Below, piece after piece: positions 20,699-53,239 of a stretch of 61,111 nt of DNA. Each line of letters opens with the position of its first letter. The first letter of the stretch is position 1. Under the pieces are notes generated by a model. That model ran no database searches. It was not told the origin of the DNA and was given only the letters and a program-made list of their open reading frames with translations. The translations under genes were made by a program, and so were the position numbers. The stretch is from a virus (lineage: Duplodnaviria > Caudoviricetes): IMG/VR virus record IMGVR_UViG_3300042444_000090, positions 1 through 61,111 of that record. One strand, written 5' to 3'.

Positions 20699-20887
20699 TC
20701 AGCGCGATGATGGCACAGGCTGTTCGCATAGCGGACAAAGCGCAAGGTTCGGCGCTGGCTTCTTGGCGCGATAAGCGTCTGCTGCTCTGGACGCAATCGC
20801 TACAAGCGCACAGCAGACAACCATGCCAACCAGAAACATAATAGGCGTTATTGTTGGGCCTCTCATGTTAATCAGCTTGCTTCTCAT
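20699..20887 (-). CDS. Small membrane protein with CxxC
   Basis: Hydrophobic segment then CPLC. Confidence 0.45.
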   Translation of the reverse strand: MRSKLINMRGPTITPIMFLVGMVVCCALVAIASRAADAYRAKKPAPNLALCPLCEQPVPSSR

Positions 20888-21173
20888 GGCCGTCCTCCTT
20901 GTTTGCGCTGACCTTCCACCACTTGCCTGTCGGACAGTACTCCGTTGCCATAGCGCTCTTTATTTCCATGTTACAGCCACAGACGTTGCACTTGCCCATG
21001 CCGCCGTAGCCTGTCTTGTCGTAATGCTCACAGTAGCGGCAGAAGTCTAGGCGCTTCTCAATGTCAGCGACTGAGGCGCGAGGCATCCCTGCAGCGACGA
21101 ACACAGCGGCAGACTTGAAGAAGTTCTTCGCCATCTGTGCCATTGTTGGCTTTGGTGGTAGCGGTTTGTTCAT
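20868..21173 (-). CDS. Cys-rich Zn-binding hypothetical protein
   Basis: RLDFCRYCEH..CNVCGC..K..CPTGKW. Confidence 0.7.
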   Translation of the reverse strand: MNKPLPPKPTMAQMAKNFFKSAAVFVAAGMPRASVADIEKRLDFCRYCEHYDKTGYGGMGKCNVCGCNMEIKSAMATEYCPTGKWWKVSANKEDGHEKQAD

Positions 21174-21430
21174 GCCATTACGTCATCGTATTTCGCGTGA
21201 GCCTTTATCTCGTCTAGCTCTTTCTTCACTGCAATGAAAGCATCCACTGCGGCCTGAGTCTTGCGCGTATGCCATTCCAGCAGGCGCTTGGCTTCTGCCA
21301 GATCATGGAACACGTCATTGCGCTGCTCTTCCATGCGCTCAGCGTGTTCGGTCAGGCGGATGATCTGTCGGCCCACAGGCGAGCCTACAAGGTTCTTCCG
21401 CACGGCATCTGTCTCAGGGGTAATCTTCAC
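21170..21430 (-). CDS. Hypothetical coiled-coil protein
   Basis: TPETDA motif; coupled to both neighbours. Confidence 0.6.
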   Translation of the reverse strand: MKITPETDAVRKNLVGSPVGRQIIRLTEHAERMEEQRNDVFHDLAEAKRLLEWHTRKTQAAVDAFIAVKKELDEIKAHAKYDDVMA

Positions 21431-21747
21431 GGGCGCTCCTCCTTCTCCAGAAGGCGCTGATACATGATCGCTGCTCGCTCAAACTGTAGCCAGCCATCCT
21501 CAGCGCATTTGCCTGCTACGTGAAAGAACGTCCTGCAGCAATCCATCGCATCCTTGAGCTTCATCTTCAGGTCATAGACTTCCAGCGTCAGGGCCAGTTC
21601 TCTGTCGGCACAGCGTTCCAGAGCGGTCTGGAGCTTAGCCGTCTTCGGGGGTGAGCCAGTGTTGGGGCGCAAACCTTCCCCAAGGTTTTTGTTATGTTGA
21701 TTTCCAACACTGGCTCGTTTCTTCTTGGTATTCATTGATTTATCCAT
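21427..21747 (-). CDS. Hypothetical protein
   Basis: 106-aa ORF coupled to downstream gene. Confidence 0.55.
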   Translation of the reverse strand: MDKSMNTKKKRASVGNQHNKNLGEGLRPNTGSPPKTAKLQTALERCADRELALTLEVYDLKMKLKDAMDCCRTFFHVAGKCAEDGWLQFERAAIMYQRLLEKEERP

Positions 21748-21817
21748 ATGGGGTATTAATTGATAGATGAGTCTGTTCGCCTATACATGACTATGTTTGT
21801 ATTGCGTTATAGGCAAG

Positions 21818-22030
21818 TTATCTCCGTAAGCCCTTGGTTTTGTGCTTGTTGCAGGCGTCCATGTACGTTCTCAAATTCGCCATATCTCGCTCTGCTGCCT
21901 CTCTCCCCTCAGGGGTATCGGGGTAGGTCTGCTCGTAGCGGGGCATGGGTAGCCCCCTAGATAGCCTAGCCCCCACGGGGCCATACGGGGTGCATATCGT
22001 CAGGCGGATACTTAGTTCAGGGCTGCTCAT
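21818..22030 (-). CDS. Hypothetical protein
   Basis: 70-aa ORF overlapping terS end. Confidence 0.55.
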   Translation of the reverse strand: MSSPELSIRLTICTPYGPVGARLSRGLPMPRYEQTYPDTPEGREAAERDMANLRTYMDACNKHKTKGLRR

Positions 22031-22499
22031 GTTCCTTTTCCTCTATCCTGACAAAGTCGCCATCGATGACTTCTGCCTCGACTAGCTCAGGGTGCTCGTC
22101 ACGGCTAGGCGTGTTGAAGGTGAGCGTCAGCTTCTGCTCGCCTGTATGTTCATGCTCAATCCGATCACCGTAGCGTTTCGGGGCCAGCTTGCTGGATACC
22201 CATTTTAGAGCATCTACGCGAAGCCGTCCGATCTGTGCATCATGCGAACTGAATGCTTCATCGATGATCATGTCGAAGTACGTGTCTGCCTGCTCGTCAC
22301 GCGCCTGTGCGTAGTGGGTGCGAAACTCAGGGTACTTTTTAAGCCAACGGAGGACGGTAACCTTGTCGGGGAAGTTATCATCGCGGCAGATGGCGCGGAG
22401 GGATTCACCGAGGGAGATGCGCTCGCATATGGCGTTGGCGATGTATTCGGAGTACGAAGAAGGTCTTCCGATAGGCTTTGCCAATTGTTTCTTCTTCAT
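22017..22499 (-). CDS. terS: Terminase small subunit (Sf6/P22-like HTH)
   Basis: GRPSSYS..IANAICERISLGESLRAIC..P...TVLRWL..YAQAR; RLRVDALKW..SKLAPKRYGDR. Confidence 0.9.
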   Translation of the reverse strand: MKKKQLAKPIGRPSSYSEYIANAICERISLGESLRAICRDDNFPDKVTVLRWLKKYPEFRTHYAQARDEQADTYFDMIIDEAFSSHDAQIGRLRVDALKWVSSKLAPKRYGDRIEHEHTGEQKLTLTFNTPSRDEHPELVEAEVIDGDFVRIEEKEHEQP

Positions 22500-22517
22500 G
22501 GGGTTATGACTTCAATA

Positions 22518-22545
22518 TTGACAGGTTATGCAACGATGGTATAAT
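22518..22545 (+). promoter_or_regulatory. Consensus sigma70 promoter on the antisense (+) strand
   Basis: TTGACA (22518-23), 16 nt, TATAAT (22540-45), with extended -10 TG. Confidence 0.7.
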
Positions 22546-22949
22546 CAAACAGGTGTTTGAATATGAGTCGATGCTTTTTTACGAGCGGATGTCGATGATG
22601 GTTTCTTCTTCCAAGCGCGTTTTGACTTTTTCTTGGACGAATTGGAGTTCGATGCTTTCTGGATCATCATTCGGGATGAGTTTGGCATACCTGAGTTGAT
22701 CGATGAGAGGTTTGCAGCCTCCTGCAAAATTGTCCAAGTCGAGGACATGGCACGATCTGCGCGTAATGCACACGATAGCGCGAGAGCGGCCTTTTTCTTT
22801 TCTTTGAGGAGATGGCTCCAGTGTTTCCCTAGGAGTTGGTTGAGTGACGGGGTTAGGTAGTGAGGTAGAATTATGCGAAGGTGCGGGGGTAGGTGGACGG
22901 GAATACGATCCATCAGGGAGTTGGGAGTAGCCGAGTTTGCGGAGGTCAT
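22545..22949 (-). CDS. Overlapping ORF carrying a RusA N-terminal-like motif
   Basis: LPHYLTPSLNQLLGKHWSHLLKEKKKA resembles the PSxN..HW start of RusA-like resolvases; alternative start at 22913. Confidence 0.45.
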   Translation of the reverse strand: MTSANSATPNSLMDRIPVHLPPHLRIILPHYLTPSLNQLLGKHWSHLLKEKKKAALALSCALRADRAMSSTWTILQEAANLSSINSGMPNSSRMMIQKASNSNSSKKKSKRAWKKKPSSTSARKKASTHIQTPV

Positions 22950-22959
22950 CGAAGGTCAT
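22579..22959 (-). CDS. rusA: RusA-like Holliday junction resolvase (catalytic part)
   Basis: ITRRSCHVLDLDNFAGGCKPLIDQLRYAKLIPNDD = DxDN..K..D..DD motif. Confidence 0.75.
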   Translation of the reverse strand: MTFDDLRKLGYSQLPDGSYSRPPTPAPSHNSTSLPNPVTQPTPRETLEPSPQRKEKGRSRAIVCITRRSCHVLDLDNFAGGCKPLIDQLRYAKLIPNDDPESIELQFVQEKVKTRLEEETIIDIRS

Positions 22960-23131
22960 TGTCTATTGAGTCTTTGTGAGCTTCGGGGGCGTCATTATAG
23001 ACCAGAGATTGGTCATTGGGTGTGGGAGTGTCGGAGGGGGTGTGGCGCTTCTTGGAGAAGATAGCGTCATAGTTTTCCCTGTAGACGATTAGATTAGTGG
23101 GACGGGGCTTATCACCTTTGCCAGCGCTCAT
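22946..23131 (-). CDS. Small conserved phage protein
   Basis: MSAGKGDKPRP...YRENYDAIF motif; ATGA-coupled to TAGT-like gene. Confidence 0.6.
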   Translation of the reverse strand: MSAGKGDKPRPTNLIVYRENYDAIFSKKRHTPSDTPTPNDQSLVYNDAPEAHKDSIDNDLR

Positions 23132-24012
23132 GTGGTTTTTTCTATTTGTGTGAGGCGCATACCATAATCGTTTACAGCGCCTGTGCGAACATATTGTTCG
23201 TAGTGAGGGACGCGATTGAGTTTGTTGCGTTTGAATCTTTTGTAATCGACGTGATGGTGCAGGCGATTGAAGCGCCAAGTGATTTCGGAGACATCGGGGT
23301 GCAGGGCTTTGAGCATTTCGGATTTTGGGCCTGTGCCTTCGTGTGCGTAGAAGGCGTCCGTGTTGCCGCCCTTGAGGGTTTGGGTGGTGGCCTTTTCTTG
23401 GAGGAAGGCGTTGAACTGGCAAGTGACGTAGCCATCCTTGAGTGCGCGGAGGGAGAGGTCGGTGTCCTCGTTATAGCGTCCTCGCCAGCGGTACGGCAGT
23501 GCGTTGTCTATGAGCAGGCAGGAGTATATGCGCGTATTTAGGACGAATGCGGGGAGTGGTTCCTTGGCCTTGGCGAAGAAGTCGTAGTTGAAGCCAGCGA
23601 TGGCGAGGTTGGTGTAGCGGTCTGTGAAGTCTTCGGCGGCGGCGAAGATAGCGCCGTTGGTGACTTTGACCATGAGGTTACGGTTGAGGCGATTGAAAGA
23701 GGCGATGTTATCGTCCATGACCCAATGGCGCTGGTAGCCAGAGAGGGAGGAGATGTCCCATGCGAAGTTCCGTGCGGGGCCGGGGCCGAGCGGCTTGGTG
23801 CGTCCATGCTCATCGCACGGCTCATACTGCTCATGGTACTGCGGGGGCAGCGTCAGGATCTTATCAGGGTGTATAACCTTTGCGTACAGATCGTACTCAT
23901 CACGCTCCACGATGATGTAGTACGGGACGTTGATTGACTCCAGCGCCTTGCTAGTCAGGCGAGAGTCAGCGCGTCCTTTTGATACAATATAGATCGGATA
24001 GCGCGGGTTCAT
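23128..24012 (-). CDS. TET-associated glycosyltransferase (TAGT/GREB1-like), putative DNA-base hypermodification enzyme
   Basis: YPIYIVSKGRA, HWVMDDNI, TRIYSCLLI, WRGRYNEDTDLSLRAL, GGNTD motifs. Confidence 0.8.
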   Translation of the reverse strand: MNPRYPIYIVSKGRADSRLTSKALESINVPYYIIVERDEYDLYAKVIHPDKILTLPPQYHEQYEPCDEHGRTKPLGPGPARNFAWDISSLSGYQRHWVMDDNIASFNRLNRNLMVKVTNGAIFAAAEDFTDRYTNLAIAGFNYDFFAKAKEPLPAFVLNTRIYSCLLIDNALPYRWRGRYNEDTDLSLRALKDGYVTCQFNAFLQEKATTQTLKGGNTDAFYAHEGTGPKSEMLKALHPDVSEITWRFNRLHHHVDYKRFKRNKLNRVPHYEQYVRTGAVNDYGMRLTQIEKTT

Positions 24013-24287
24013 GCGACAGTCTCAGGGGCGTCCTGAGTGTAGCGCAAGTGCGATGCACGGCGGTGCTCCATAGCAGGGAACCACAGTGCGCGTTGCTTGG
24101 GGGTGATGGGCTGGCCCATACGGCGCGAGAATTCTTTTACGTCTTCCTCATTACGGAAGCGCACGTTGATCACGCGATAGGGGCGGAGATCCTCCATGAC
24201 GAATTCAGGCATATCCTGCCATTCTTCCTGCCATAGGGACGGGACATCAAGGAGTGTGGGGTTCTGCTTTGGGCTGAGCTTTTTCAT
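24009..24287 (-). CDS. Conserved small partner of TAGT-like gene
   Basis: EWQDMPEF..VRFRNEEDV..F...GQPITPK..LWFP motif; coupled to TAGT. Confidence 0.65.
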   Translation of the reverse strand: MKKLSPKQNPTLLDVPSLWQEEWQDMPEFVMEDLRPYRVINVRFRNEEDVKEFSRRMGQPITPKQRALWFPAMEHRRASHLRYTQDAPETVA

Positions 24288-24423
24288 CGATGATGAGGGG
24301 AGTGGGTTCCTTACAAAACTGGTCATAGGCCAAATCGGCAGCGAGGTCACAGGGATTGCAATCGCCGTAGAGTTTGCCGTGGACGCAGTATTCTGACGTT
24401 GGGATGGGTTCTTTATCGCTCAT
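24247..24423 (-). CDS. Small Cys/His protein (58 aa, below cutoff)
   Basis: Hand translation MSDKEPIPTSEYCVHGKLYGDCNPCDLAADLAYDQFCKE... Confidence 0.55.
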   Translation of the reverse strand: MSDKEPIPTSEYCVHGKLYGDCNPCDLAADLAYDQFCKEPTPLIIDEKAQPKAEPHTP

Positions 24424-24438
24424 TATAATTCAATTGTG

Positions 24439-24504
24439 TTGGTATTAGCAGCAGCGCCTACGCAGTCACTTGCTGTTTCAGCGCTGCTGCTCCATACATA
24501 CCAA
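24439..24504 (-). promoter_or_regulatory. Intergenic long hairpin with bulge
   Basis: 24447-57 pairs with 24481-91 (11 bp); 24439-45 pairs with 24498-504. Confidence 0.55.
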
Positions 24505-24512
24505 ATTAGCCT

Positions 24513-25037
24513 CTAGAACGGAATGTCATCGTCGGCTAGTTCCTCTTCCTCTTGCTTCGGCTTAGAGGACATGGCCTTAGCCTTGGCATCAGCGGCTTTG
24601 CTAGATGGCTGAGCGATGGAAGTGCTTTCTCCTTTGTCCTCAGCCTTCATGCGAGCGAGCAGACGGTCAGCGACTTCAGCCTTGGCTTTGTTGGTCAGGC
24701 TGTTGAGCCACTTGGCCTTGATCATGGTCTTGCCGTTGTATTCCTCTTCTTCGGTCACGATGATGACTTCAATGTCTGCAAACGAGTCGAGGTCATCCCA
24801 ATCACCATTCCAATCGAATGCCCTGATGAGCGCTTCGACGGTGCGGGGTTTGGCTTTCTCGCTGAGGTAACCGCGCCAGACGATTTCCCTGCGGTACTGG
24901 TCGCCTGCTTCTGTGACGATGCAGGGGATTCGGATGAATGGTGTGCCGCTTTGCGTTTCGTCTAGCCATCCGTTGGGAGGACGTTTGACGGTGCAGAGGA
25001 AGCTGCCTACTTGATCGATGTATTTATTGTCGCTCAT
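24513..25037 (-). CDS. ssb: Single-stranded DNA-binding protein (DUF669-like)
   Basis: OB-like core, flexible tail ending DDDIPF. Confidence 0.8.
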   Translation of the reverse strand: MSDNKYIDQVGSFLCTVKRPPNGWLDETQSGTPFIRIPCIVTEAGDQYRREIVWRGYLSEKAKPRTVEALIRAFDWNGDWDDLDSFADIEVIIVTEEEEYNGKTMIKAKWLNSLTNKAKAEVADRLLARMKAEDKGESTSIAQPSSKAADAKAKAMSSKPKQEEEELADDDIPF

Positions 25038-36046: not shown

Positions 36047-36229
36047 TTAAACCTCCACACCTACGGCTTCTGCCAGTTTATCGATGTTCCCGTTGTCTAG
36101 CTCGTAGGCCAAAGTAGTGACCTCGGTTTCATCGGTTGTTTTCGGATCGTAATAGATCTCGCCGCCATTGTACGGGACTGCCTCCCAACCATCGGGTTTC
36201 TCGTCCCATTCTGAAAGCAGGATGTCCAT
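36047..36229 (-). CDS. Small acidic protein
   Basis: 60 aa, TAATG-coupled to the giant gene. Confidence 0.6.
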   Translation of the reverse strand: MDILLSEWDEKPDGWEAVPYNGGEIYYDPKTTDETEVTTLAYELDNGNIDKLAEAVGVEV

Positions 36230-39200
36230 TAAGGTATCTTAATCTCTGGAAGAGGGGTTTTCAACATCGAACCTACAACGTCATTGTCGCTTACAGCCTT
36301 CCCCTTTTTGGCATTGGCTACAAGCGTTTTATGCTGTTTTTCGTATTTCGGGAACAGCTTCCTAAGATGTGTCGGAGTTTTAATCAGGAAGTTGTTGCCA
36401 TTGGCAGGGCCAATCATCATCCACGGGTAGGAAGGATGGATCTTAAAGTTGGGTTTCTTCAAAAACGCATCTCGCATCTTCTTCTCCGCTGGAGTCATGG
36501 CCGCTTCCTGCTTTGGATTGTTGCCAAAGTATAGAGCAAAAGCCTCAGGATTTGAAGATAGCTGAATTACGGCCACGGCTTGCCCCGTTGTGGCATTGAT
36601 CATGTCTTCAGAATTCTGCAAGGCATTCACTACATTGGGAAGATCGGGAATACCAGAAACTGACTTAGTCGCTTCTCCTCTTGCCGTAAATGAGTAGCCC
36701 AAAAATTCTTGCAGGAAGTTTTTGTTCGATCCCAACTTCAATAAGCGCTTAAACCATGCTTTATTTTTATGCGCGTTGTATACCTTGAGCGCTTCTTTTT
36801 TGGCAGTAGCCATTAGTTTGGGATCATTCTTAGCAACGCGATTCTTGATCGGAGTTAGCGCCCTGTTGAATGCAATGATTGCGTCTTCTTCAGGCGTATT
36901 CTCAGGAGCGGGAATCGGCTTTTCTCCCTTTGCTGCGCGTATCCTGTTCTTCGCCCCGCGCCTTGTAGCGGCTTTGATCTTTTGCGCCCTTAGGTTTCCA
37001 ATCTCCAAAAGGACATGAGCCAGATCTTTTACCCAAGGCTCCAGTTTCCCTGCCTTGTCAAAGGCATCAACTTCTTTGATGTAATCAGTCCCGAAAGCAA
37101 TGTTGGATCGGTGAGCATCATCCGCCATGATTTGCACGATGTGGTATCCATCGTCTACGTAGGGTAGCCTGTTACGCATTGCATTCACTGGCGCAAGCCC
37201 AAGGTTGCCCCAAACGATCTTATATAGAACGCCATCTGGCCCCATTACGGTTTCCTGATTGGACTTGAGGAATTCGTGCATCGGCCCACCCATGTCCTTG
37301 CCAAGGGTGTGATGCCTGTCTGCCTGCACCATCCCAACGCGCTTGCCGCTGATGTCGCTCAGATCTTTGACAACAGGATTAACTACGCGAGTAGGATCTA
37401 TTTTTACAAGGATCTCAGTTCCAGTATCGTCAATCAGGGAAGCGTAGAAAAATCCACGGGCAGGAACCTTCTTCGGAAGTTTGACTACTCCTGTCTTTGT
37501 AATTGTGAAGTCAGCAACTGGAGGATTTTTGCGCTTTGGAAGCATTAAAGGCATTTCCCCTTCTTCAGGCGGCTCAATCTGGCGCGAGATAAATCCGCCG
37601 CCTTCCATTTCGGTCACGTCATTGAACTCAGGGTTCAGCATTTCCGCTATTGCTTTTGCTTCGTCACGTTCTGCCTGTTCCTGTGTTTTTCCCATCGTGC
37701 GTTGATACAGCAGATCCATTGTCTCAGGTTGGATGTCTACAAAGTCAGACAGCACTTCGGCAGCATTGAGAACATCGTTGTTTGCTGAATAGCCGGGGTT
37801 GTATCCTTCTGGAAATGTTCCTGCAGGAGGATGCACTGCGGACATAACATTCGATATATCGACCAATACATCGTCTATTGGCCGCTCCATTCCTTTCGGA
37901 AAGTTCTTTTTCAAGACGTTAAACGGATCGACACGGGAGTCTGTTTTCTTATCCAAGGCAACAATGTCAGGAAGCGATGCGGCAAGATCTGAAAACAGAT
38001 CCATCATATAGCTCATTGCTGTCTTGTTTAGTTCAATGGACTTTGTCAATTCAGCCGATCTTTCTTCGGCATATGGCATTGGAATTTCTCCGCGATTAAG
38101 TTTTTCCAGAAAGTTCTTGTATATACGTTGCAATGTGGACGGCTCAAAATCGTCCAATATTCTGCGAGCAATCGTTGTCAGGTGGAAAGACCTGTCGAAA
38201 CCACCAGAAAATCCTCCACCAAGCGGAGTGTTTACTAAGTCCATAGCATCTATCTCAAAACGATCTTTTCGGAGCAACACGTCATCTTCAGGAAGATCGG
38301 GATCTCTTTCGTAGCGCCTGCTCGGCATGAATTCAGGCTGCGGCCCCGCGCTCGGATCATTTTCGTCTGTCAGACGATCAATTGAATCGACCCACTCAAT
38401 CCATTGCTGCTCGCCATAGCGGCTCTTCATCAGGCTCACAATGGCTTCCTTATTATAGCCGTATTCGATAGCTTTTGTGCCGTTGGCAAAGTTAATGACC
38501 CATCGGGTATTCAAAGAATCGTCCAATAGGCGCTTGCTAGACGGAAGCGTATCAAAATAGGCAGGAGTCGCCTCTTGGCGCATTTCTTCTGCATCTACTT
38601 GCTCTTCTAATGATGGAATAAGCGACTCAAAGCCATTGATACGGAGGGTATTTTCCCAAGCGCCAGCCTTATATTTCGGCCTGTCGGTTCCAACAATGGG
38701 GATTTGAATTTCTTCAAACTGAGCCATTGGCAGATTGTTTTTTTCAAACATCGCCTGCAATTCGGCCTGTGCCTGCTCAAATGTCTTTAGTGGCGGCGGC
38801 ATTAGCAATTTTGAGTCTATTGCCGTATCACCCTCAAAATATAGCTCAGGAGAGAATGCCCCCGTGCCGTCAGCGCCGGGTACAATTCGGATTCTGGCAA
38901 GCCAACTGCCCTTCTTGTCGTTTAGCTCTCCACTGAATCGGACAAATGAAGACGGCTCGCGCTGCGGCATAAACTGAGGCTGGCCCTCTTGTTCAATGCG
39001 AGCAACGGCTTCTGGAGAAAGATCAACTCTCCACATTGGAACAATGCCCTCAATTAGCTGTTTTTGAAAATCTAAAGCCTCTTCAACGGTGTCAAAGCGA
39101 GGACTGATCGGCTTCATGCTATCGTCTCGACTAACCCAAAACTGCTTGTTCGTCTTATTCCATTCGCTTCTGAGTCTAGTGTCAGTAGCCTGCATTCCAT

Positions 39201-42200
39201 ATTCAGGAACCCTTAGAAAGGTATCAACAGCCTTAGCTCCGTAGGGTTTCATGTATTTCCCAATGTCAGAAGGTTGGACTATATCGTAGTAGCCCTTCAT
39301 TCCTTCTCCGCCAATCGTCATGTCCGCTTCGGTAATGCTTTGCTGGTTGCCTGTTGCGTTTTCTATAATTTGAGAGGCCATTTTTTTGCCAACGATTTCG
39401 TTGAGCTTAACTTCAGCGGGACGATTTCCTTCTGCAGCTTCTCCGCGAACCTCTTCTAAAATGTCATTTATCCGCCCTTCTCCACCAATAACAACCCCAT
39501 CGCTTTTACGGACAATGGCCTTGCCAATCATTCCCGGCGTTTGAAGAACATCAACATCTTCTCCCGGTTCTCCTGATTGATCATAGAGCGGATCTCCCTT
39601 GTAGAAGAACACATCTATTTTGTTTTCGCCCGTCTGGTAATAGCTGATGCCGTCAATAATTTGACGCATCATATCCTGATAGCGCTCAACTTGGGTGACG
39701 CCTTTCGTCCATCCAATCCACTCAATGCCATTCGCGGCTACTGGTTTATTAGGAATAGCCTGTATCGCTTGCAACGCTTCGGGGCTGCTATACCCGTAAG
39801 CGTCTTTATAACGATTAGCTCTCTCAACTGCCGCATCAAATTCTTCTCTGCGAATTGCCTCATCAGCGCTTACAGCTTTCTCTAACACTCGTTTGAAAAG
39901 TTGCGTTCCCCAATCGCGCTTGAACGGCATATCGGGAATTCCCGCAAAATCGCCATCTTCGGCTTCCTGCTTTAGAACGGCATCTTCCACAAGGTTTGCG
40001 GCCATTTGGCCTATGGTCATCTTTTGAAGATCACCAGAATATGGATCCATCGCTTCTGTTTCCGTAGTGTCTTCAAGCATTTGTTTCACGGCTTTTTTGA
40101 TTGCTTCGGCTTCCATGCTGTCAGCCTGCATTCTTAGTTCGTGATATGGATCGCTTGTATCCATCAACGGGCTAGATTCGATATCACGCTGAACTTGTTC
40201 GATGGTTTTTTTGCCAGCCTCTCGGCTTTGCTTTCCAAGCAGCGATACGTAAATGTTCTCTAGTCTCCATCTGCTTAGTGTATCTATCAATTTAACTGGA
40301 TCTTCTTCACGCCAACCGTAGTCGCGACCTTTTTGCGCTCTGTCCGATTGGAACTCTTCAATCATTATGCCCAAGCGGCCATTTTCATCGTAACGGTATT
40401 TGTACCTGACATGACCCAAATAGCCGGGGATTTGCTTATAATGTCCTGAACGAAATTCTTTTAGCGGCTTTCCCTCGCGATTCGTGCGCGGAGTCATGGT
40501 CAAAACCATTTCATAATATCCATCTCCACCAGCAAGCGTAAGTGATCCAGTATTATATCGATTTCCTCCATCAACAATTAACAATTCTGGTCTATTCGCT
40601 TTGATATGCTCCATCAAAAGATCCTTACTGACTTTGCCCCCGCCCTGAGTAGCGAGCTTATTAATTACATTAATGGCATCGCTGAACAGAACTTCATCTT
40701 CCCTGATTTTATTAGGGGAATTCCAATTGACCCTAACCTTTACGCCTTCGGTAGCCCGTGAACGTGCCGCTGCTTCTGCTATGGCTTTTTGATCTGCTGG
40801 AACTCTTGCAATGACGGATGTTTTATTATTCTCGTCAGTTTCCGTGACAATATACTCTCCAAGCATGGCCTTGGCTTGCTCTGGCGTCACATACTTACCC
40901 TGAATTTTGCTATTTAGCGTCCTTTCAAGCTGACTATAGAAGCCCCGCTCGCTTGTTGGTTCTTTCATTTCCCTGCGCGGCATGAATGTCGGCAAGCTGT
41001 TCGTGTTTACGGCATCAACAAGCGCTGGTGTGATCGGGAATATCCAGCCTTCATCGGCATCTATGTAGTCGATATTTTCCTGTTTCTGAGCCTCTCCAAC
41101 AGCTTTCTCAAGCGTCTTGTACTCGGCTACAGCTTGGTCTGGCATTGTTGGGTCTGCAGGGTCTTTGGGATCTTTCATCCCAACGTATACCAAGTCTCCC
41201 CTGCCCATGTTTTGCGGCTTCGGAATTTGGAATGGAAATACTTTGCTTCCGTATTTTTTTAGGAACTTATTGACCTCATTGACGGCAATTTCATCGTAGT
41301 AAGGCTTGAATTTCAAACCGCCAAAAAATGTCGATCCGCGCTTTGGTTTGATGGTGTTGCTTATCCCGTTTTTGGCATTGTTAAGGATTTCATCTGCCAT
41401 TGACTTCGGAATGATTTTGTCGAGAGCCTTACCTTGGAAATCATAACTCCCCATGCCCGGAGACATCTCAGCAAAAATGACTTCTTTGCTGTTAGGATCG
41501 ACGGTCAAATATGCATAGACCCCACTAGACGGATACAGCAAAACTTGAACCTGTCCCGAATCATCGATGCCTTTATATTCGACCTTTTCAAGAGGAGCCA
41601 TATCGCGCCAGCGCTTGGCTTGGGTTTTTCCGCCTGACCAGTAGACGTATTTTTGTTCGTTCTTAACGGCATCTACAATTTGGTTTTTAATCAAAGCTAA
41701 GCCCCATTCACGGCTCTGACTAAATGGAGCTTCAGGAGGGGCTTCCCTGTTTACTGGAACGGGATCTCCCGCCTCAACACGCAATTTAATGGTCGGTTCA
41801 GGGAGGTTGCTAACATCTAAAACCCCTCCAACCATTGGCAGCTTAGTTCCAGATTGTTTTGCAGACTGTCCCGCAAGAAATCTCTTCATATTGGGATCTG
41901 TTCCATAGCTCCCAAAATATTCGTCTAGATATTGCTCGGCATCTTCGCGTCTATCAAAATCTTGTTTCAAAGTAATGTCAGGGCCGTCATCAACATTTAG
42001 AATCACCTTGTAAGAGTTAGTATACTGGCGATACCCAATTGGATTGCCCTGACCATCTTTTCTGCGAGCGGCCTGATTTCTGTCGCTCTGCATTTCGTGG
42101 ATATGGCTAATCGGAACAAGATGGCTGAATCCAGTTCCTCCATATGCTCGCATTGCAACGTCAGGAGATCTGAAGTCCCAACCCTTATACGTCAAATAAA

Positions 42201-45200
42201 AGTCTGCTTCTTGGCGATTTATGATGTCGTTTTTGACAGCTTCTGCCACAACATGAAGAGGAATTCCAGATTTGGCGTCCCATTCAGCAAATTCAGGATC
42301 AGGCGTGTATATTGTTTTTAGCGCCGATTCGATCTGTGGTATTGTCCGCAGTGTCGGATCAACAATCATGCGGTCACCTACGCGCATATGGGCTATATAG
42401 TACGGATAGCTTTCGTAATGTGTTTCAGTGAATTCTAGACCTTCTGCTCGTCCGCGATTGCTTATTTGAAAGTCTAATGCCTGCTCTCTAGAAAGATTGC
42501 GAGCAACCTTCTCCGCCATTGCTTTTGTATCGTAGTAAGCGCCGACAGGAGCATCTGTATTTGGGAAAACCCTGTCTCCCTGCTCAAAGACAACTTCGTA
42601 TTTTCCTGCTCCAGAAAGCGCGTCTTTTGGCCTTTTCCTGACTGTATACTTTACAACTTCAAGTTTTGGACGGACTTGCAGAATTTTTTCTCTGTAATTT
42701 GTATCACCAAGGATTCGGTATTCGCCGTATTGAGTAGTAGGACGATCCCGATATCCACCAATTGCTTGCGGCCAATATTGTTTAAGACCAAGTTCATTCA
42801 CATTATAAATGCGCTGCGTTGGATCTTTTACCATGCCATTGATGCGCCAGTAAGCCTGAGAACGCTTTTCCTCGGATGCAATTTGCTGATCTAGCTCAAG
42901 AAGATTGATCTCGCTTTCGTCCATTGCCAAATCGCGCTTGCGGACAGCTTCATCCAGCTTACGCATTGCCTTGGCAGTAGCCAAATCTTTGTCCTTTGCA
43001 GCCTCTAGCTCTCTGCTGGCAGCTTCGCGCTCGGCCATATACTCGTCATTGATACGTTGCCAATCCTTGTCAGCAATCTGATCACGTTTAGACTGTATTT
43101 GCTGCGCTCGCTCATCTGCTGCTTCTGCAGTCAGGCGCGACCAACGCTCTGCTTCTTCTACTCCAAAATCATCAATGCCTTGTATGGCTTTCAGAAGCGC
43201 ATACTTATCAAGATTGAATCCCTGATCGGCCAACTCTCCCAACACTTCTGTTTTGATAAATCCGCTAGGTTGGCGAATCCTTGCTCTTTTAAGCGCTGAT
43301 TGGGCCTCTTGCTCAGAAAGATAATATGGGAAACGAGCAACTGCGGGACTAGGACTCCAGATGTTTCCAGCTTCATCATAGATCCCCCAAGATCCAGTGG
43401 CGGGATCTTGATTGACCGTGTAGTTGCCAACTAGGTCGGGAATGCGGTTGCGAGCTTCTTGGTCAAGATTCAAATACTGCGAAAACAAAGTCTCTAATTT
43501 AGAAGCCAAACGCTTGCCTGCAGGGGCCATGTTTTTCCATGAAATGGCGCGTTCTCCAGAATCTTGTCCACCAAGAACGCTAAGCATGAATTTGACGTTA
43601 TTCTGGCGGAGGTACTCCATCAGATCGGCTTTATTCACGTTCTTGCCGTCATTACTCAGCGTATCTATGGCCTCGTTAATTTTGCTCCATTCAATTTCGG
43701 AAGGCTTAATTCCATTTTGCGGATTGTTGATGATAGCTTTAACCTGTTCGATTGTTGCTGATTTGCCTTGAATCTTCTCATCTAGCGCTCCCTCAAGCCT
43801 GCTGTTGAAACCGGGGTACACGCGCTCGTCAATGGTCATTTCCCGCCTTGGCCGCATGGGCATGAACGCAGCAGCTTCTCGGAGATCGCGGAGAGACTGC
43901 AGTTCACTTGTGTAGTCCTGACCGTAGGCTTCAGCAAATTGATCGCCAAGCGACCTCTCTTCGTCTTCAAGAATCCTAAGGCGCTCGCGCTGCTCAGAAG
44001 TCATGCGGAATCCCTCTTTTGGCAAGGTTTCTGGCTGGCGAATACCGCCATCGCGTTGAGGCATAAAGTTGGCTTTTGCCAAGCCATAGGCCACAGGCAT
44101 TTTCGGCAAGGATGTTGGAGCGATTTGCGCGATGTGATCAATGCGGACGGACATAATCGTCCTGTCCATATTCAGATCGCGGGGATCTCCTTTTCTGCGA
44201 GGAACCTTTGTCCGATCAGGATTCGCTCCTTCTGTAGATGTGTCAAATAAGTTAAGAAAATCGTTAAAGACGTTTCTCTTCATGGCCGCTACTTGCGGAT
44301 CTGCATCAAGCGGCTTTGCATTAGGGCCAGCAATTTGTCCGCTTTCGGTATATCCACTGCCGGGCAATCCCTGCTGCCAGTTATTGAGGTAACTCTGAGT
44401 AAACTCGTTCCAGAATTGTTCTTTGCTGCCCTTCCAAGGCATCAAACGCGCAGGCATCCTGTCGCCCCATGCATGAAGTTTATCAAACATTCGACCTACT
44501 GAAATCGCCGTGAAAAGGAAGTTTCCAGCCTTGGACATCATCAATCCAATCGGAACAAGATCATAATACTTCGGTGAAAAGGCTTCATATTCGCCCTTTT
44601 CATTCATCATCGCGGCATAATTGATCAAGTACCTTGATCCATCGTTGCGAACCAACGAGTCATTGATATTTAGAATAACGTCCTTGATGCTTTTCGGTAG
44701 AATTGTTTCGGGCAGGCTTTTAATAGCTTCAACCTGTAAGGGGCTTAGAGTTCCACGATATGTATCGCCGCCTTCTTTGGTAGGATCAAAACGATTGGGA
44801 GCGCCATAGTCAGGGGTATCTAGTGCCTCCTGAATGATTTTATTGCGCTGCTTTAGAATCCGTTTCGCTTCTTTGGGTTGATGGAACTTAGGCGTTACCC
44901 CGTCTGGCTGCATCGCAATCTGCCTTGCGACAATAATCTTGCTGCCTACTGGAATGCCTTGGATGTTAACCTCTGCAGACAGTGGCCCGTATCCATTGCT
45001 TTGCTGTACTCCAGCATCAGTAATATCCCAAGAGCCTTCGTAGACCATTGTCCCTGACAACGCCTGTGGAGCGCCAATCGCTTTTCCATCAGGCCCAATA
45101 ATTTGTGCCTGAACTTCAGTAACTGGCAGCGGACTGTATGTTCCAAACGTCTCTAAAAGCGCTTTGTTTTTGACCAGTTCAGACCGTGTAATTCTAGGAG

Positions 45201-48200
45201 CCTGCTTGCCTTTTACTGCAGGACTGATCTGCCCCTGCAAATCAATCATGGCTTCCAACGCTTCACGTGCCAGCAACTGAACTTCGGGAGTGAATCTTGC
45301 CCCGCTATTGTCTGAAATAACGTCCTGCGAGTCAGGAATATTAAGAAGACGCTTCATGGCAGACAGCTTCTTCGATAGGGTTTCAAACTTTGCTCTCTTA
45401 AATGCTAAGTTAGCCTTGTCAAAAATGACCTGAATGGCAGGAGTGGGAGCCTTTCCAAAAACTCGGCTCATGCTGTCAGCGGCCAAGTCTGCCGTAATTT
45501 CTTCACGCAGTTTGGCTGCTGCCTCTTTTTGATTGATTAGAACTTGGCCTGTTTGTGGATCTCTTAATACTTGTCCACTAACTGGATCGCGTTGCGCGAC
45601 AGAATTCAGGAAAAATTCAGGGTTTACGGCAGTTCCTGCGTATACATTCACGTAAAGATCGGCCAATTCTGATTCGGTCAGCCCCTCGCCAACTTCGGCA
45701 ATTACCTGACCATCGGCATTTTTGATCTGTTCCTTGAAAAGAATACGATATGGCTCAGCCATCAACTGCTGGTACTCAGGAATTTTGCTTAAATGGTGTC
45801 CCGCCTCATGCCTTAGCGCCGTCAAAGGATCTTGACCACTATTAATGCGGCGAATAACAGCATCTGTATTGATGACCATCGTCGGTTTGGCGTCATCCAT
45901 GACAATCTTAGGCCCACGAAACTGAGGAATGCCGCCAGAAATGACAGTGTCATCTATTGTTCCATCATAAAATCCATCCTGCTCTGCGTATGCATCAAGT
46001 TGAGCATCAGAAGCGTCAGGATATTTAGCGCGTAGATGGTCTTTAATTTGTTGGCTGCTCAACAAACGAATGCCCACGTTATTCTGACCACGAACAAATC
46101 CGCCGTTAGCCTGATTGTGAATTCCTGCGAGCGTTAGCAGATATTGCCTTCCAAATTCATTGCGCGTTTGGACGTTTGCTCGTTTCATGCGCTCCAGCGC
46201 ACGTTGGTTATTCGCCAAATTTTTCTGTGCCACCTCCGCAAGCTGAGGATTATTGCTTGCAGCAGCAGCTTGAGCAGCTTGAGCGGCACGATCAACGCGC
46301 TGTTGCTGGTTGTTGATGACAACTTGCCAATCTGTCATGGCATCCACATTGCCTCGGTCAGTGGGATTAAGATCTTGGTAAGCCTTCCAAGCGTCTGAAT
46401 CTTCTTTGCGCCTGCGCCGTGCATCGTAAACGGGATCATCCATCCCGAAAACCTTGTTCATCAGGCGCGTTTGTGTGCGACCTAAGCTAGACCACAGCAA
46501 ACCCTGACCCAACATCGCGGCCATTTCTTCAGAATCTTGAGAGTCCGCAATGCCAACGGCCAATCCAACGAGAGTCGGCTCAACGCCTGCACGAATATAC
46601 TCTCTGGTATTGTCAATAATGCTGTCTAAGCGCTTGCCACCAGAAGCTGTTAGCCTGTCGCTCAAGCCGCCCTTAATCGGCGTTGCTTTAATCGGCTCTC
46701 CGCCTTCTGCCCTAGGAGCACCTTTGCCTGCCTGACGGTCACGGCGGAGCTTAGACATCGTTTCAAATGTTCCAGCCTGACCTCCAGCGGATAGGCGCTT
46801 CGCCTCATAGTAGTTTCGGATGAATTCAGGGGTAGATTTAAGCATCCTCGCTCCGATCAATCCCCCGATAACTCCCAAAGGTGAATCAGGCTCTAGGCCA
46901 TAGCCAATGCCAGCGCCAGCCACATATGGTGAAACTTGACGAACCTTCTTAAAGAAGTTGCTTCTATCAATGGCCTCTTGCGCCCGTTTAAGAGATTCGT
47001 CTACCGCAACAGCAGTTTTTTCTCTTTTCGTTACACGTTGAGACTTGTCGAATGTTGCCGCCTGTTTTGAGCGCAGCTTTTGGGCATCTTCGGCCAAAAT
47101 CCGATTCACTTCATCGGGGGTTTTCCCACGGAATCTCAGGTAGCTCGCAACCTTGGGTGTCGCATATGACCCCAATTTGAGCAAATTCATGCCGTAGCCA
47201 ACCGCATCCAATCCGAATCCCTCTGGCAGAAGGATCTCGCCAGCGGTCATAATGTCCTGATCCATCTCAGGAATCAGTTTTTTGGCTTCCGCGATGGCTT
47301 CAAGACCTCCAACCGTCATGGCCTCTAAGTCGCCTTCACGCGCAGTAATGGCTTGCTCGCGGGTATATCCATAATCCCGCATATAGTCTTCGACAGTTCC
47401 AATACTAGACGTAGCAACAGCATTCACTGCAGGCGCAATAAAGTCCAAATACCTGTGGTAAGCCGTTGGATTGAGCGATTCAAACTCGTATGCCGCCCCT
47501 TCATAGTTCTTGCGAGCTTTCCAGCGCTCAAAACTTGTATCGTAGCTGTTTAGGCCAACGCTTTCGCTCAAAAGATCCCATCCCTCAACCCCGCCAGCAC
47601 CCATTTTCTGACCAAGTTTGGCAAGTTGGTAGGGAAGGTCTACGGCAGGAGAAACAAAGGCCATAGGCGCTGCTTTAGCCCTGTCGGTGACATCCTGCTG
47701 CGTTTTAAGGATCTCTTGCTGCTGCTCAGGAGTGTATTCCTGCAAAACTAGATCAAGATACTCTTTGCCAGTAAATTCAACGCCACCACCCGTGTATCCC
47801 GCTTGAGGATAATACTCGCCAATGCGCTCGTTTACGCGCTCCCGTGCGCGGACAGGAAGCTGAGAGTGAAGCTGCCATGCAAGATTGTAGTCCTTGCCAG
47901 TAATCTCGCCCAAAGCGACATCTCTGACGCCTTTTGCAACGCCTTTTCCAACGCCAACAAGCGTTTCCCCAAACATGACTGCCATGTCGATTGGGAATTT
48001 GCCAACAGCGCCCCCAAGATTTAGCCACTCCTGAGAGTTTTTAGGGATGCGCCAAGCGCTATTTGAGCGAATATAGTCATATACCTCGCGCTCTTGCTTG
48101 GCGTTTAGAGGCATATCGGGACGCAATTTGACAGCTTCTGCCAGTTCTTCAGTGCTTAAAGAGTCCCGCAGATCCATCAAGTTGGCGTCCATTTCAGAGC

Positions 48201-48658: not shown

Positions 48659-50425
48659 TTAGTCTACAGCAATAGCGGATTCCATTTCTGCTTCTAGAAC
48701 TTTCTTTTGCGCCAACAACTTTTTCAGTTCATCGAACTTTGCGTTGTATTCATCAGTTCCTTTGGTCAGTCCTGTCATTTCGACAACTTTTGCTCGTACT
48801 TGTGATTCAATATCCCCAAGCGGATCGGGGGTTTTCAGGTCAATTGCCACCATTTCTGGACGCGCTCCAGATTGTTCAGCAAGACGCTTATAAATGTTGG
48901 TAAGCTGATTCTGACCACGTTGTCTCTCCATAAAAAGAGACTTGCCCTGTTTGACAAAGTTTTTTCTCTGATCGGGGGCAAGCCTTCCGCCAGTAAGCAG
49001 TCGATTATATTCCGCTCTGATGCGGTCAGGAACGCCTGCCGCATTCTGAGCGTTTGCAAACTCTTGTTCTCGGACAACACTGCCGGGGTCTAGCAGCTTC
49101 ATAAAGCTGAAGATCATCGCAAGATCTCCCGCTCCCTCGCCACCAGACTCTGCCATACGCGAAGCACTTTTGATGTTAGCCCATGCATTTTGAACCACCA
49201 TGTAGTCCTTGGATGACGCAATAAACTCCTTACGCAGCTTTTGTTCCGCATCTGTATCAGCGCCAGCGGTAGTTGCAGGCTTTTCTGCTTCGGCTCTTGC
49301 CTTACCAACTTCAAGTCTGGCTTTTTCAAGGGCTAGGCGCTCAGCTTCCGTTTGCGGAGCTTTGGGCTTCGGCGGCATGACTTCAAAATAAGTTTCACCA
49401 GTTGGGTCATCCACCCTAGGAACAACTTCTGGACGCTCGTAATTCTCAGGCATTGGCATTTCTGCCACTCGTCGCGCCTGATCATAATTCGCGTACGCTC
49501 CCGGCTCAAATCCAGCGGGAAACTCCGTTGTTGGAGGAGCCATTTGGGCCAACGGCGCTCCCGCCGTGCTAGGAGTAAGATCACGAACCCCCTGCTGCAA
49601 TTCTTGCATTTGGCGAGCAGTTTCAGAGGGGATATAAGCGATATTAATCTGTCCAGCTAAGTCGGTAAGCGGCAGTCCCATTGCGCTTGCAGGAAGAGCC
49701 TGCGGTGCTCCGCCAGCTTGAGCAGCAGCAAATTGTGCAGCCTGCTCAGGGTTAATCCGCATCGCTCCAGCGGGAATAACATCGCTTCCTACTGGCAATA
49801 CGGGCGGAGGCGTCAGATTAAAAAGCGATCCCTCCCCTTGGACAGCAGGCAAATCCTCCTCGTCTTTTGTTGGAAGATCTGGCTCAACGGGAGGAATATC
49901 TCGTAGGTCTTCATTAAGATTTGGCTCAAGTGGGTCGGTTCCGTCGAAACTTTCTTCATCTTCAATGTCTCCGCCACCGCGATAAGGCGCTGTAGAGGGT
50001 TCGCCAATCATGCGGCGGGGGGGCTTTTTATTTGCCCCAACTTCCTGAAGGCGTTGTGCTGCAGATTCGCGCAAATACTGAATGCGTTTTTGCACGGCAT
50101 CTGAAGAACGGGCAGACTTAATCTGTTCAATATCTAGCGCCCTGCTGTGCTTTCTTTCTTCTGCAGCCACAGCCCGTTCTTGCTCAACATTGCTCATGTA
50201 AGCCTGCAATCCCGCTGCTCCAAGAGCCTGAAGAGCGCCATACGCAGCAGTAGCGGGAGCTTCTGGATTCTCGTCTCCAATCGCATATGCCCCTGCCACG
50301 TCTCTTGTAAAATCATTTTGAGTGACTACAGGTGTAAATGGAGAAAGACCCTCCAAAGCAGAAGTTATTTTTGACTGCTTAGGGGTAAATGAATATCCCG
50401 CTGTTTCTGACATTGGCGCTGCCAT
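48659..50425 (-). CDS. Internal virion / DNA transfer protein
   Basis: GDLAMIFSFMKLLDPGSVVREQEF motif typical of podovirus ejection proteins; coiled coils. Confidence 0.7.
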   Translation of the reverse strand: MAAPMSETAGYSFTPKQSKITSALEGLSPFTPVVTQNDFTRDVAGAYAIGDENPEAPATAAYGALQALGAAGLQAYMSNVEQERAVAAEERKHSRALDIEQIKSARSSDAVQKRIQYLRESAAQRLQEVGANKKPPRRMIGEPSTAPYRGGGDIEDEESFDGTDPLEPNLNEDLRDIPPVEPDLPTKDEEDLPAVQGEGSLFNLTPPPVLPVGSDVIPAGAMRINPEQAAQFAAAQAGGAPQALPASAMGLPLTDLAGQINIAYIPSETARQMQELQQGVRDLTPSTAGAPLAQMAPPTTEFPAGFEPGAYANYDQARRVAEMPMPENYERPEVVPRVDDPTGETYFEVMPPKPKAPQTEAERLALEKARLEVGKARAEAEKPATTAGADTDAEQKLRKEFIASSKDYMVVQNAWANIKSASRMAESGGEGAGDLAMIFSFMKLLDPGSVVREQEFANAQNAAGVPDRIRAEYNRLLTGGRLAPDQRKNFVKQGKSLFMERQRGQNQLTNIYKRLAEQSGARPEMVAIDLKTPDPLGDIESQVRAKVVEMTGLTKGTDEYNAKFDELKKLLAQKKVLEAEMESAIAVD

Positions 50426-50428
50426 ATT

Positions 50429-51160
50429 TTATCCTCCGCCGTAAGTTAGATTTTGAGATGAAATGTTGAACCGATTACTTCTGGCATTTCTTCCGCCAGA
50501 TTCTTGATTGATAGCTGCAGCAGCAACGGCAGGGGCGACATTGCTAGGAGCCATATAAGGAGTGGCCCCTGCAAGAGAACCCCCGCCTGCTCCTCCAACA
50601 TTAGAAAGAGCCTGAAGACGTGCCGCATTAATATCGAATCCCCCGCCCACGTTCCCCACCGATGTGTTCGCTAAAGCGTATTTCTGACCCGCAGCGGAAT
50701 CTGCGGCCACTTGTGCAGCATTCATTGCGCTCAATCGTCCACTTGCTCTTTGAATAGAAGCATTTTGCGCTGCTGTTGCCGATTGGTTTTCTGCAGCAAT
50801 TGCCGCATCTCGTTGACGCTTAGCTTCGGCCTCAGCAGCCGCTTTTTTTTCTGCATCAAGTTTTGCCTGAAGCGCTTTAATAGCTTTATCGTTTTCTGCC
50901 TGTTGTGCCGCTGATGTCCCTCCGACAACTGTTACGGTTGGACGCTGCGGATTTACAATACTATTAACCGCTCTTCCAACGCCCCCAAATGCATTGCCAA
51001 CTGCTCTTCCTGCAGAACTAACCGCTCCTGTAACGCCTCTCCAAGCGTTACTAATTGCGCGGCCAAGACTCCATCCACCTAAAAGCAAAAGCCATTCGGG
51101 ACGTTCTGGAGAAAACGCAAGACAAACAGTATTGATGATAAAATCAACAATGCCGTGCAT
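50429..51160 (-). CDS. Ala/Gly-rich internal virion protein, paralog 3
   Basis: GGGFDINAARLQALSNVG; C-terminal NRFNISSQNLTYGGG. Confidence 0.65.
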   Translation of the reverse strand: MHGIVDFIINTVCLAFSPERPEWLLLLGGWSLGRAISNAWRGVTGAVSSAGRAVGNAFGGVGRAVNSIVNPQRPTVTVVGGTSAAQQAENDKAIKALQAKLDAEKKAAAEAEAKRQRDAAIAAENQSATAAQNASIQRASGRLSAMNAAQVAADSAAGQKYALANTSVGNVGGGFDINAARLQALSNVGGAGGGSLAGATPYMAPSNVAPAVAAAAINQESGGRNARSNRFNISSQNLTYGGG

Positions 51161-51161
51161 A

Positions 51162-51707: not shown

Positions 51708-51708
51708 A

Positions 51709-52245: not shown

Positions 52246-52310
52246 AATTTTATCCTCCGTTTTGTTAGTTGTTATGCTTTCTTGAGGGTTCTCCCAAGAA
52301 AAATGTTAGG

Positions 52311-53225: not shown

Positions 53226-53239
53226 AGTTTTATTTAGAA

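Follow-up and report, generated by a model that had tools for sequence, protein, structure and literature searches.

Background

The Holliday junction resolvase RusA is a single chain of about 120 residues that forms a homodimer. Another use of coding sequence is found in phage lambda, where Rz1 is wholly embedded in the +1 frame of Rz; the two spanin products form one complex, and Rz1, whose sequence has no relationship with that of Rz, probably arose by overprinting. In a third group of genes, among them dnaX, orfA/orfB of the IS3 family and the tail chaperone genes G/GT of phages, two frames are joined by programmed -1 frameshifting. Nested genes, split enzymes and -1 frameshift genes are each known separately, but to my knowledge a single-domain fold that is divided between two fully overlapping frames, and kept so across a large family of phages, has not been described. 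In this study I analyse a locus with these properties in the IMG/VR virus record IMGVR_UViG_3300042444_000090, whose 61,111 bases are called the window hereafter. Two open reading frames (ORFs) of this locus, A and B, overlap out of frame, and each carries a part of a predicted RusA-like resolvase; codon numbers are those of these two ORFs in the window.

A full-text search of the literature, supplements excluded, returned nothing on a two-frame or split RusA. Where PMC5764923 and PMC10885494 mention RusA and frameshifts, the passages retrieved use these terms in senses unrelated to a two-frame RusA, and the reference list of PMC10885494 cites work on the CGA AAG frameshift of IS1222.

A preliminary description of the locus, made from its letters alone, had proposed a RusA-like enzyme that is split over two overlapping frames. 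The analysis reported here bears this out, and the coordinates and motifs given at that time were all correct. As for how the two frames are used, I consider it reasonably likely that they are two nested, out-of-frame genes for the two halves of one Holliday junction resolvase, of which the separately started chains assemble. I infer from this that both ORFs would be translated, that the two chains would bind each other and that their complex would cut junctions.

Results

ORFs A and B overlap almost completely on the minus strand, with their ATG codons at positions 22959 (B) and 22949 (A). Frame A is the +1 frame relative to B, as the codons of A begin 1 nt after those of B, and a change from A to B is a -1 change; both this relation and the distance of 10 nt between the starts had been read correctly in the preliminary description. 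ORF B consists, in this order, of MTFDDLRKLGYSQLPDGSYSR, a Pro/Ser/Thr-rich stretch and RAIVCITRRSCHVLDLDNFAGGCKPLIDQLRYAKLIPNDDPESIELQFVQEKV, and ORF A of a featureless leader, HLRIILPHYLTPSLNQLLGKHWSHLLKEKKKAALALSCALRAD and a Ser/Thr/Lys-rich tail (Table 1).

A scan of IMG/VR with B matched 109 stretches, 100 of which encode a relative, and the best 80 were kept (47-100% identity). In all 81 loci, the window's own included, both A and B gave tblastn matches and both frames are open, which answers the question, raised at the outset, whether frame A would be interrupted in homologs. Over all loci gathered in the IMG/VR scans, 119 distinct viral genes carry the PSLN..HW motif of frame A in the +1 frame of the D.DN motif of frame B, and the two motifs stand at one of three fixed distances, 37 codons (80 genes), 44 codons (37 genes) or 40 codons (2 genes). 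This two-frame layout with its fixed spacing reaches relatives at about 35-50% identity and is far beyond chance. A further IMG/VR scan, with P0188, mostly returned contigs that had already been found. In the phage section of GenBank, a DNA search in distant mode with positions 21000-25000 gave one unrelated match of 65%, and a tblastn search with B gave none.

Such a layout could in principle be caused by an indel in sequencing or assembly, or be the remains of a decaying pseudogene, and the frame change does lie near a homopolymer-rich run in the window. However, contigs from three other DNA runs of different studies span positions 22427-22966 with no inserted or missing letters, a 100% identical gene is present on another IMG/VR contig (L002), and the same layout recurs with fixed spacing in 119 distinct genes. 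A pseudogene is further contradicted by the strong purifying selection that each segment shows in its respective frame. I therefore give practically no credence to either possibility.

The frame under selection was determined by codon-phase analysis of 20 representatives with less than 88% nucleotide identity. The most variable codon position is B position 3 in B codons 2-21 and 66-126, and B position 1, which is A position 3, in codons ~24-59. Among codons that differ, the share of synonymous differences is 37% in B vs. 13% in A for codons 2-21, 8% vs. 48% for codons 27-59 and 50% vs. 14% for codons 66-125. Selection thus follows frame B over the N-terminal motif, frame A over strand b1, the PSLN..HW loop and helix a1, and frame B again over the catalytic half. 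Initially, the locus had been described as A followed by B; the change from A to B is real, but B codons 1-21 are also conserved in frame B, and the pattern is B-A-B. In 20 sequences, 15 columns of the alignment of the N-half (alignment A1) and 26 columns of that of the C-half (alignment A2) are invariant, and the D, D and N of the D.DN motif, the subsequent Lys and the first D of the DD motif are invariant in 20 sequences. In window B these motifs are L73-D74-L75-D76-N77, K83 and D98-D99; I take their counterparts in E. coli RusA to be the catalytic residues D70, D72, K76 and D91.

Across the part that is coded in frame A, frame B is protected from stop codons. In 40 representatives, I compared the use of T at the wobble position of A between contexts in which it would create a stop in the B linker and contexts in which it is safe. 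T was found in none of 201 stop-creating contexts vs. 126 of 806 safe contexts of the same segments (15.6%), so that 31 stops were expected and 0 observed (nominal P 1e-15, inflated by the relatedness of the sequences). In 114 of the 119 genes, the tail of A, which runs over the catalytic half of B, has no stop over at least 45 codons beyond D.DN, which brings it close to the end of B, a few codons short of it; in the remaining five, a stop is found 9-11 codons before D.DN, just after a1 (four genes), or at +32 (one gene). Tests within genes hint at stop avoidance here as well (NTG before A, 0 times, Fisher p 0.004; NTA before A/G, 0 times, p 0.015), but much of this is explained by the strong bias of this gene towards C at third codon positions (76% vs. 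43% in neighbouring ORFs), and four genes manage without the tail. Simulations of stop-free frames with synonymous codons gave probabilities per sequence of 0.16 for an open A tail and 0.50 for an open B linker; these are not relied on, because the third frame, which served as control, was open more often than simulated (4/20 vs. 0.04 and 10/20 vs. 0.12).

At positions 22765-22782, both frames are constrained on the same nucleotides, as counted in 28 representatives with distant clades included. Frame B reads R60.. V63. I65 here, the start of strand b2, and keeps Arg in 25 sequences (site -14, where A has its Ala in 25), L/V/I in 28 (site -11) and Ile in 27 (site -9). Frame A reads A60 L61. 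(S/C)63 A64 L65, the end of helix a1, and keeps Ala in 25, Leu in 25, Ser/Cys in 26, Ala/Ser in 27 and Leu in 28. The mutual constraint extends to single bases. Residue 59 of A, which precedes R60 of B, is hypervariable, and its wobble base is nevertheless C in 24 of 28 sequences, as the Arg of B requires; residue 61 of B (site -13) is variable, yet its third base is T in all 28, as the Leu of A requires. The third base at site -10 is C in 27 of 28. The Ile of B is ATT in 27 of 28, though 76% of the xTN codons in this gene end with C; ATC would turn the Leu of A into Ser, and ATA would make a stop. In the window, a1 corresponds to A codons 47-66 and b2 to B codons 60-69, as mapped from a structural model of the relative P0253 (see below) through alignment A4. 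The same nucleotides are thus selected in both frames because the end of a1 and the start of b2 overlap on the DNA, and as a consequence, a single -1 shift in the clades with 37-codon spacing would leave at least one of the two elements truncated in the resulting chain. The 44-codon clade has 7 extra codons between the a1 and b2 elements, and its doubly constrained stretch covers only about 3 codons. The preliminary description had let the frames cross at the A-rich run AAAGAAAAGAAAAAG, but selection changes frame 10-25 nt downstream of it, at 22765-22782.

The relationship with RusA is not apparent from the window's proteins themselves. Neither A nor B of the window matched the RusA family of Pfam at E <= 1 or reached any other Pfam family, and 20 C-halves gave no match to Pfam RusA. 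In PHROG, window B gave weak matches to RusA-like families (phrog_34, E 0.014; phrog_1682, E 0.15) and A gave no RusA match; likewise, profile searches of the PDB sequences with alignments A1, A2 and A4 gave no match to RusA. I then turned to the wider family. The C-half profile, run with HMMER against 1.84 billion cluster representatives, matched 2485 clusters at E <= 1e-3, 397 of them at E <= 1e-10. Classified by motif, the best 150 of the 2485 clusters comprise 102 B-type proteins (at least 52 residues before D.DN and no PSLN..HW in the same frame), 34 short calls, 6 proteins without the C-half pattern and 8 that were flagged as having both motifs in the same frame. A motif like the N-terminal one of B is present in 29 of the 102 B-type proteins and was not seen, by eye, in most single-frame relatives.

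Inspection by eye established P0211, P0253, P0303, P0313, P0314, P0316, P0317 and P0277 as true single-frame forms, whereas the flag of P0233 was false. Single-frame loci in IMG/VR are L297 and L299-L304, which were flagged and have a spacing of 54 codons, and L298, found by eye. In these relatives, a single frame encodes b1 and PSLN..HW, then a helix of ~19-22 residues that a loop of 8-13 residues connects to b2, and finally the same catalytic half. Several of them match PHROG families annotated as RusA-like Holliday junction resolvase, over the full length for P0253 (E 3.6e-10) and P0313 (2e-9 and 3.4e-8), and with further RusA-like scores for P0211 (2.8e-4), P0316 (3.4e-4) and L300 (1.6e-3). 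With the Pfam RusA family, P0211 scored 20.1 bits (E 0.001), under the cut-off of 22.8, and the 8 other relatives had no match. A search for single-frame relatives among longer proteins with the N-half profile gave 55 matches, and all 18 that were examined are A-type ORFs with out-of-frame tails.

For P0253, a model was made with AlphaFold2 (AF2) from alignment A4, in which P0253 is combined with the A half and the B half of the window as separate rows. The model has a predicted local distance difference test score (pLDDT) of 87.8 and a predicted template modelling score of 0.81, and places b1 at residues 14-20, a1 at 35-53 and b2 at 67-76, with a loop of 13 residues between a1 and b2. The N-half in frame A aligns with residues ~14-56 of P0253. 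In a Foldseek search, all 4 matches of this model at E <= 0.001 were chains of E. coli RusA, of which the best was 1q8r_B (E 1.7e-4, probability 1.00, template modelling scores 0.57/0.70, root-mean-square deviation (rmsd) 3.3, 20% identity). Judging from these matches and models, the family is assigned to the RusA fold, and the window gene is a predicted member in which the fold is divided between two frames.

One could argue that B by itself is the working nuclease, and that frame A is an unrelated overprinted gene or not expressed at all. B is the ORF that most gene callers report (all 20 proteins examined, from the 120 listed of 159 protein matches, are B-type), and its C-half folds confidently on its own in AF2, with residues 61-126 forming b-a-b-b at pLDDT 80-89. 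However, the model of B alone reaches a pLDDT of 73.8 as a whole, its residues 21-60 have low confidence (52-56), and its N-terminal motif is a short helix and hairpin at 70-75. It has no clear fold match: Foldseek gave none at E <= 0.001, and the best match with VIA had Z 4.7. RusA 1q8r_A came only 6th (Z 4.2, rmsd 3.2, 63 aligned), with residues 58-126 of the model on residues 52-116 of RusA, tied with generic 4-OT/MIF folds. A complete RusA fold of B alone, which according to the preliminary description would speak against a split enzyme, was hence not seen. The A segment carries the b1, PSLN..HW and a1 sequence that single-frame relatives have in frame before the same C-half, it is in frame A that this segment is under amino-acid selection, and the B reading of the same codons is unselected (8% synonymous) and modelled with low confidence. 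A self-sufficient B is accordingly very unlikely.

If both frames are used, their products could complement each other as follows. Strand b1, the PSLN..HW loop and helix a1 would come from ORF A, and ORF B would supply its small N-terminal motif, a linker of ~38 residues that would be a mere out-of-frame image of A, and then b2, a2, b3 and b4, and with this half the acidic catalytic residues D74, D76 and D98/D99 as well as K83. A and B would each be initiated separately, at closely spaced start codons behind the end of the upstream gene. Non-covalent assembly of the two chains would then complete the RusA fold, presumably in the form of two paired heterodimers.

The locus has the properties of a pair of nested genes, as both frames are open, each has its own start codon and each is under frame-specific selection. 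In frame B, an ATG is present in 117 of 119 genes, and in frame A an ATG lies upstream of b1 in 111 of 119, the other 8 having TTG or GTG. In 33 of the 37 genes of the 44-codon clade, an A-frame ATG located 10-14 codons ahead of the motif is kept while the B codon pair varies among YA, YD, YE, HA and NA. In some clades, A has start signals of its own. In L237 (about 1960-2290), a Shine-Dalgarno sequence (SD), GGGAGG, is followed after 8 nt by an ATG that comes right after a TGA and directly before b1, giving MAIRIVVKQPIPSLN; in L238 (about 150-480), GGGGAAGG precedes a GTG that serves as A start, again directly before b1. The only possible start of B in both loci (TTG or GTG) lies 4 nt upstream of that of A, behind the same SD, and judged by sequence this would be a compact case of paired initiation, with one strong SD serving two frames. 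In the window, the ATG of A overlaps the stop codon of a small upstream ORF in an ATGA (Table 1) and the ATG of B lies 10 nt upstream of that of A, so that both starts are within reach of a terminating ribosome.

The association of the two chains was modelled as a complex of B (alignment A3) with the N-half of A (alignment A1). The interface score ipSAE was 0.52 vs. 0.02 for the best control, with contact agreement between runs of at least 98% and a partner pLDDT of at least 74. This counts as 'weak support': the mark is reached by 58 of 80 solved complexes and by 2 of 110 mismatched pairs, and scores of up to 0.60 were seen for only 7 of those 80 but for both mismatches. The preliminary description had named two overprinted polypeptides that assemble into a heteromeric RusA as one of two possibilities; it is the one the evidence favours.

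Its other possibility, a programmed -1 frameshift at the A-rich run, is one form of a more general alternative, in which recoding yields a single chain. The ribosome would either start at A and slip by -1 near the end of a1, or start at B and shift by +1 and then by -1; in the latter version the product would run from the N-terminal motif through b1 and a1 into b2 and what follows it, which is the order of elements in a single-frame RusA-like protein. Several observations fit this alternative. The selected segments B-A-B are colinear with the single-frame relatives, a1 and b2 hardly overlap in the 44-codon clade, and a hairpin lies downstream of a G AAA AAG in the window's clade. In four genes, frame A has a stop shortly past the switch, reminiscent of IS3-type -1 sites, where a stop follows soon after the switch. 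A fused chain of exactly the expected kind is P0193, to which I return below.

However, nucleotide alignments of 20 representatives and of 36 genes of the 44-codon clade show no conserved slippery motif (X XXY YYZ or A AAG-type) at either of the two junctions. The A-rich run is found only in the window's clade and a few others, and frame-A selection extends ~10 codons beyond it. Neither is there a conserved RNA structure downstream: RNAalifold predicts -1.0 kcal/mol for 20 sequences, with 4 pairs of which 0 covary, and the hairpin of the window is not significant (z -1.55; 13 of 200 shuffles fold as well). A programmed frameshift at the A-rich run is hence not supported. In the 37-codon clades, selection acts on one set of nucleotides for both the end of a1 and the start of b2, and a ribosome with a single shift point could not read the two; B is also kept free of stops over a part through which a frameshifting ribosome would pass in frame A. 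Finally, b1 is immediately preceded by an SD and a start codon in L237 and L238. Taken together, I regard recoding into one chain as rather unlikely. The double shift in particular is improbable. In hundreds of phage lineages, ribosomes would have to leave frame B by +1 behind the N-terminal motif and return to it by -1 where a1 ends, all within ~45 codons. With no canonical slippery sequence or stimulatory structure at either place, the recoding signal would be of a new kind, and might reside in the nascent peptide itself or in the nucleotides conserved as CGC..T...T...C ATT.

Two separately started chains are therefore favoured, since a single -1 shift cannot deliver a whole a1 together with a whole b2 in the 37-codon clades, no slippery heptamer or RNA structure is conserved, and the B linker is protected from stops. 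To this can be added that the ATG of B is conserved and its N-terminal motif under selection, that A has start signals of its own in some clades and in 4 of 119 genes a stop just after a1, and that ATGA coupling places both starts near the stop of the upstream gene.

Several points weigh against two separate chains. Translation of either frame is a prediction from the sequence, and a contig from RNA run X20 (152 nt, 7 differences over 22583-22706) belongs to a relative and is silent on transcription in this phage. The position of the A start is variable, with the nearest ATG 5 to 34 codons before the motif and only TTG or GTG in 8 of 119 genes. Neither start in the window is preceded by an SD, but the same holds for 27 of 38 long ORFs of the window (11 of 38 have SD-like sequences). 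The score of the predicted complex amounts to 'weak support', and since RusA has a solved structure, even this pass may stem from the predictor having memorised the fold. A normal chain would result from one -1 shift in the 44-codon clade, where a1 and b2 overlap only briefly. P0193 (112 aa) is an A N-half joined in frame to a B C-half, with HWSQLHRLKREARLAL continuing directly into RVRITRHACRVLDADNFAGG, the exact product of a frame switch between codons 61 and 62; no near-identical locus was found for its DNA in IMG/VR (best 63%), and this protein might have arisen by natural re-fusion or from a sequencing error, or might indicate that a fused chain is functional. Furthermore, the two-chain reading offers no role for the N-terminal motif of B and no reason for frame A to stay open over the catalytic half in 114 of 119 genes.

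Genomic context

The features of the locus are listed in Table 1. The small ORF whose stop overlaps the start of A lies at 22946-23131 (minus strand; 61 aa from its ATG), and it begins with a second ATGA, in which its start codon shares bases with the stop of the gene at 23128-24012. These stop-start links make the gene at 23128-24012, the small ORF and ORF A a translationally coupled gene chain ahead of the gene for the terminase small subunit (22017-22499; phrog_1482, E 2.6e-43), which is located directly downstream of the A/B locus.

Table 1. Positions of ORFs A and B and of the elements within and next to them
Feature	Position	Strand	Description
ORF B	22579-22959	minus	126 aa; N-terminal motif, linker and catalytic C-half of the predicted RusA-like fold; contains LDLDNFAGGCKPLIDQLRYAKLIPNDDP
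ORF A	22545-22949	minus	134 aa; leader, predicted RusA-like N-half (b1, PSLN..HW loop, helix a1) and Ser/Thr/Lys-rich tail; contains RIILPHYLTPSLNQLLGKHWSHLLKEKKKAALALS
N-terminal motif of B	22897-22959 (B codons 1-21)	minus	MTFDDLRKLGYSQLPDGSYSR; pattern h..L..LGY...PDGSY, frame B
Linker of B	22783-22896 (B codons 22-59)	minus	out-of-frame image of the A N-half; stop-free, without amino-acid selection in frame B
Functional N-half, frame A	22755-22883	minus	HLRIILPHYLTPSLNQLLGKHWSHLLKEKKKAALALSCALRAD; b1, PSLN..HW, helix a1
Doubly constrained zone	22765-22782	minus	CGC GCT ATC GTG TGC ATT; both frames selected
Catalytic C-half	22582-22782 (B codons 60-126)	minus	b2, LDLDN, helix with K83, NDDP, b3, b4
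Tail of ORF A	22545-22754	minus	overlaps the C-half of B; without amino-acid selection in frame A
A-rich run	22791-22805	minus	AAAGAAAAGAAAAAG; in frame A AAA GAA AAG AAA AAG; slippery-looking
ATGA overlap	22946-22949	minus	ATG of A overlaps the TGA stop of the small upstream ORF (22946-23131); read from the sequence

The gene at 23128-24012 (minus strand, 294 aa) matches phrog_842, 'beta-glucosyl-HMC-alpha-glucosyltransferase' (E 1.3e-44). This match suggests that the phage, a freshwater phage, may carry DNA with sugar-modified hydroxymethyl-pyrimidines; near-identical DNA is present in lake-water and freshwater metagenome runs of many studies. On the same strand, a Cys-rich protein of 101 aa with several C..C pairs is encoded at 20868-21173 and matches phrog_13558, a family of unknown function (E 2.3e-12). 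A single ORF of 4142 codons occupies 36229-48657 (minus strand), which is very large for a phage of 61 kb. Genes at 48659-54082 (minus strand) have strong SDs of the GGAGGA type, and most other genes of the window, those of the resolvase region included, have none; initiation signals therefore look uneven across this phage genome.

Discussion

If the resolvase is indeed made as two chains, a small single-domain fold has been split and its pieces have been written over each other in different frames, and this split state is held by selection across a large and diverse group of phages. Its origin would be a natural fission of a protein by frameshift, rescued by a second start codon, rather than the overprinting of a new protein. 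Gene callers would systematically lose the front half, as they call either A or B and never both, and neither of the two reaches the RusA family of Pfam. The locus would also offer a compact natural system to study dual coding, the assembly of split proteins and the choice between paired start codons. If recoding should prove true instead, the signals would be of an unknown type. For practical annotation, 'hypothetical proteins' of the B type that are encoded beside terminase genes could be annotated as predicted RusA-like catalytic subunits with a hidden partner ORF.

Compared with lambda Rz/Rz1, the locus is similar in that a small ORF is nested out of frame in a longer one and that the products are proposed to work as one complex. 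However, the nested ORF here would be the homologous front half of an ancestral single-chain fold, and within the outer ORF it lies over what is just an unselected linker. With the -1 frameshift genes dnaX, IS3-family orfA/orfB and tail chaperone G/GT, it shares an upstream frame that overlaps a downstream -1 frame and, in the window's clade, a run of the A AAG type. In contrast to these genes, it has no conserved slippery site or stimulatory structure, both frames are selected on the same 18 nt, and the -1 frame is open and protected from stops back to a conserved ATG of its own. In terms of fold, the locus is close to RusA of E. coli and phage 82 (PDB 1Q8R, 2H8C and 2H8E; PF05866), with which it would share the succession of b1, a PS.N loop, a1, b2, D.DN, a2, DD, b3 and b4. 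It differs from RusA by an AGG insertion between D.DN and the Lys, by the additional N-terminal motif of B and by the lack of a Pfam RusA match for the window's ORFs, and above all in that the fold is divided after its first third, the remaining two thirds being encoded in another, overlapping frame, where RusA is a single polypeptide.

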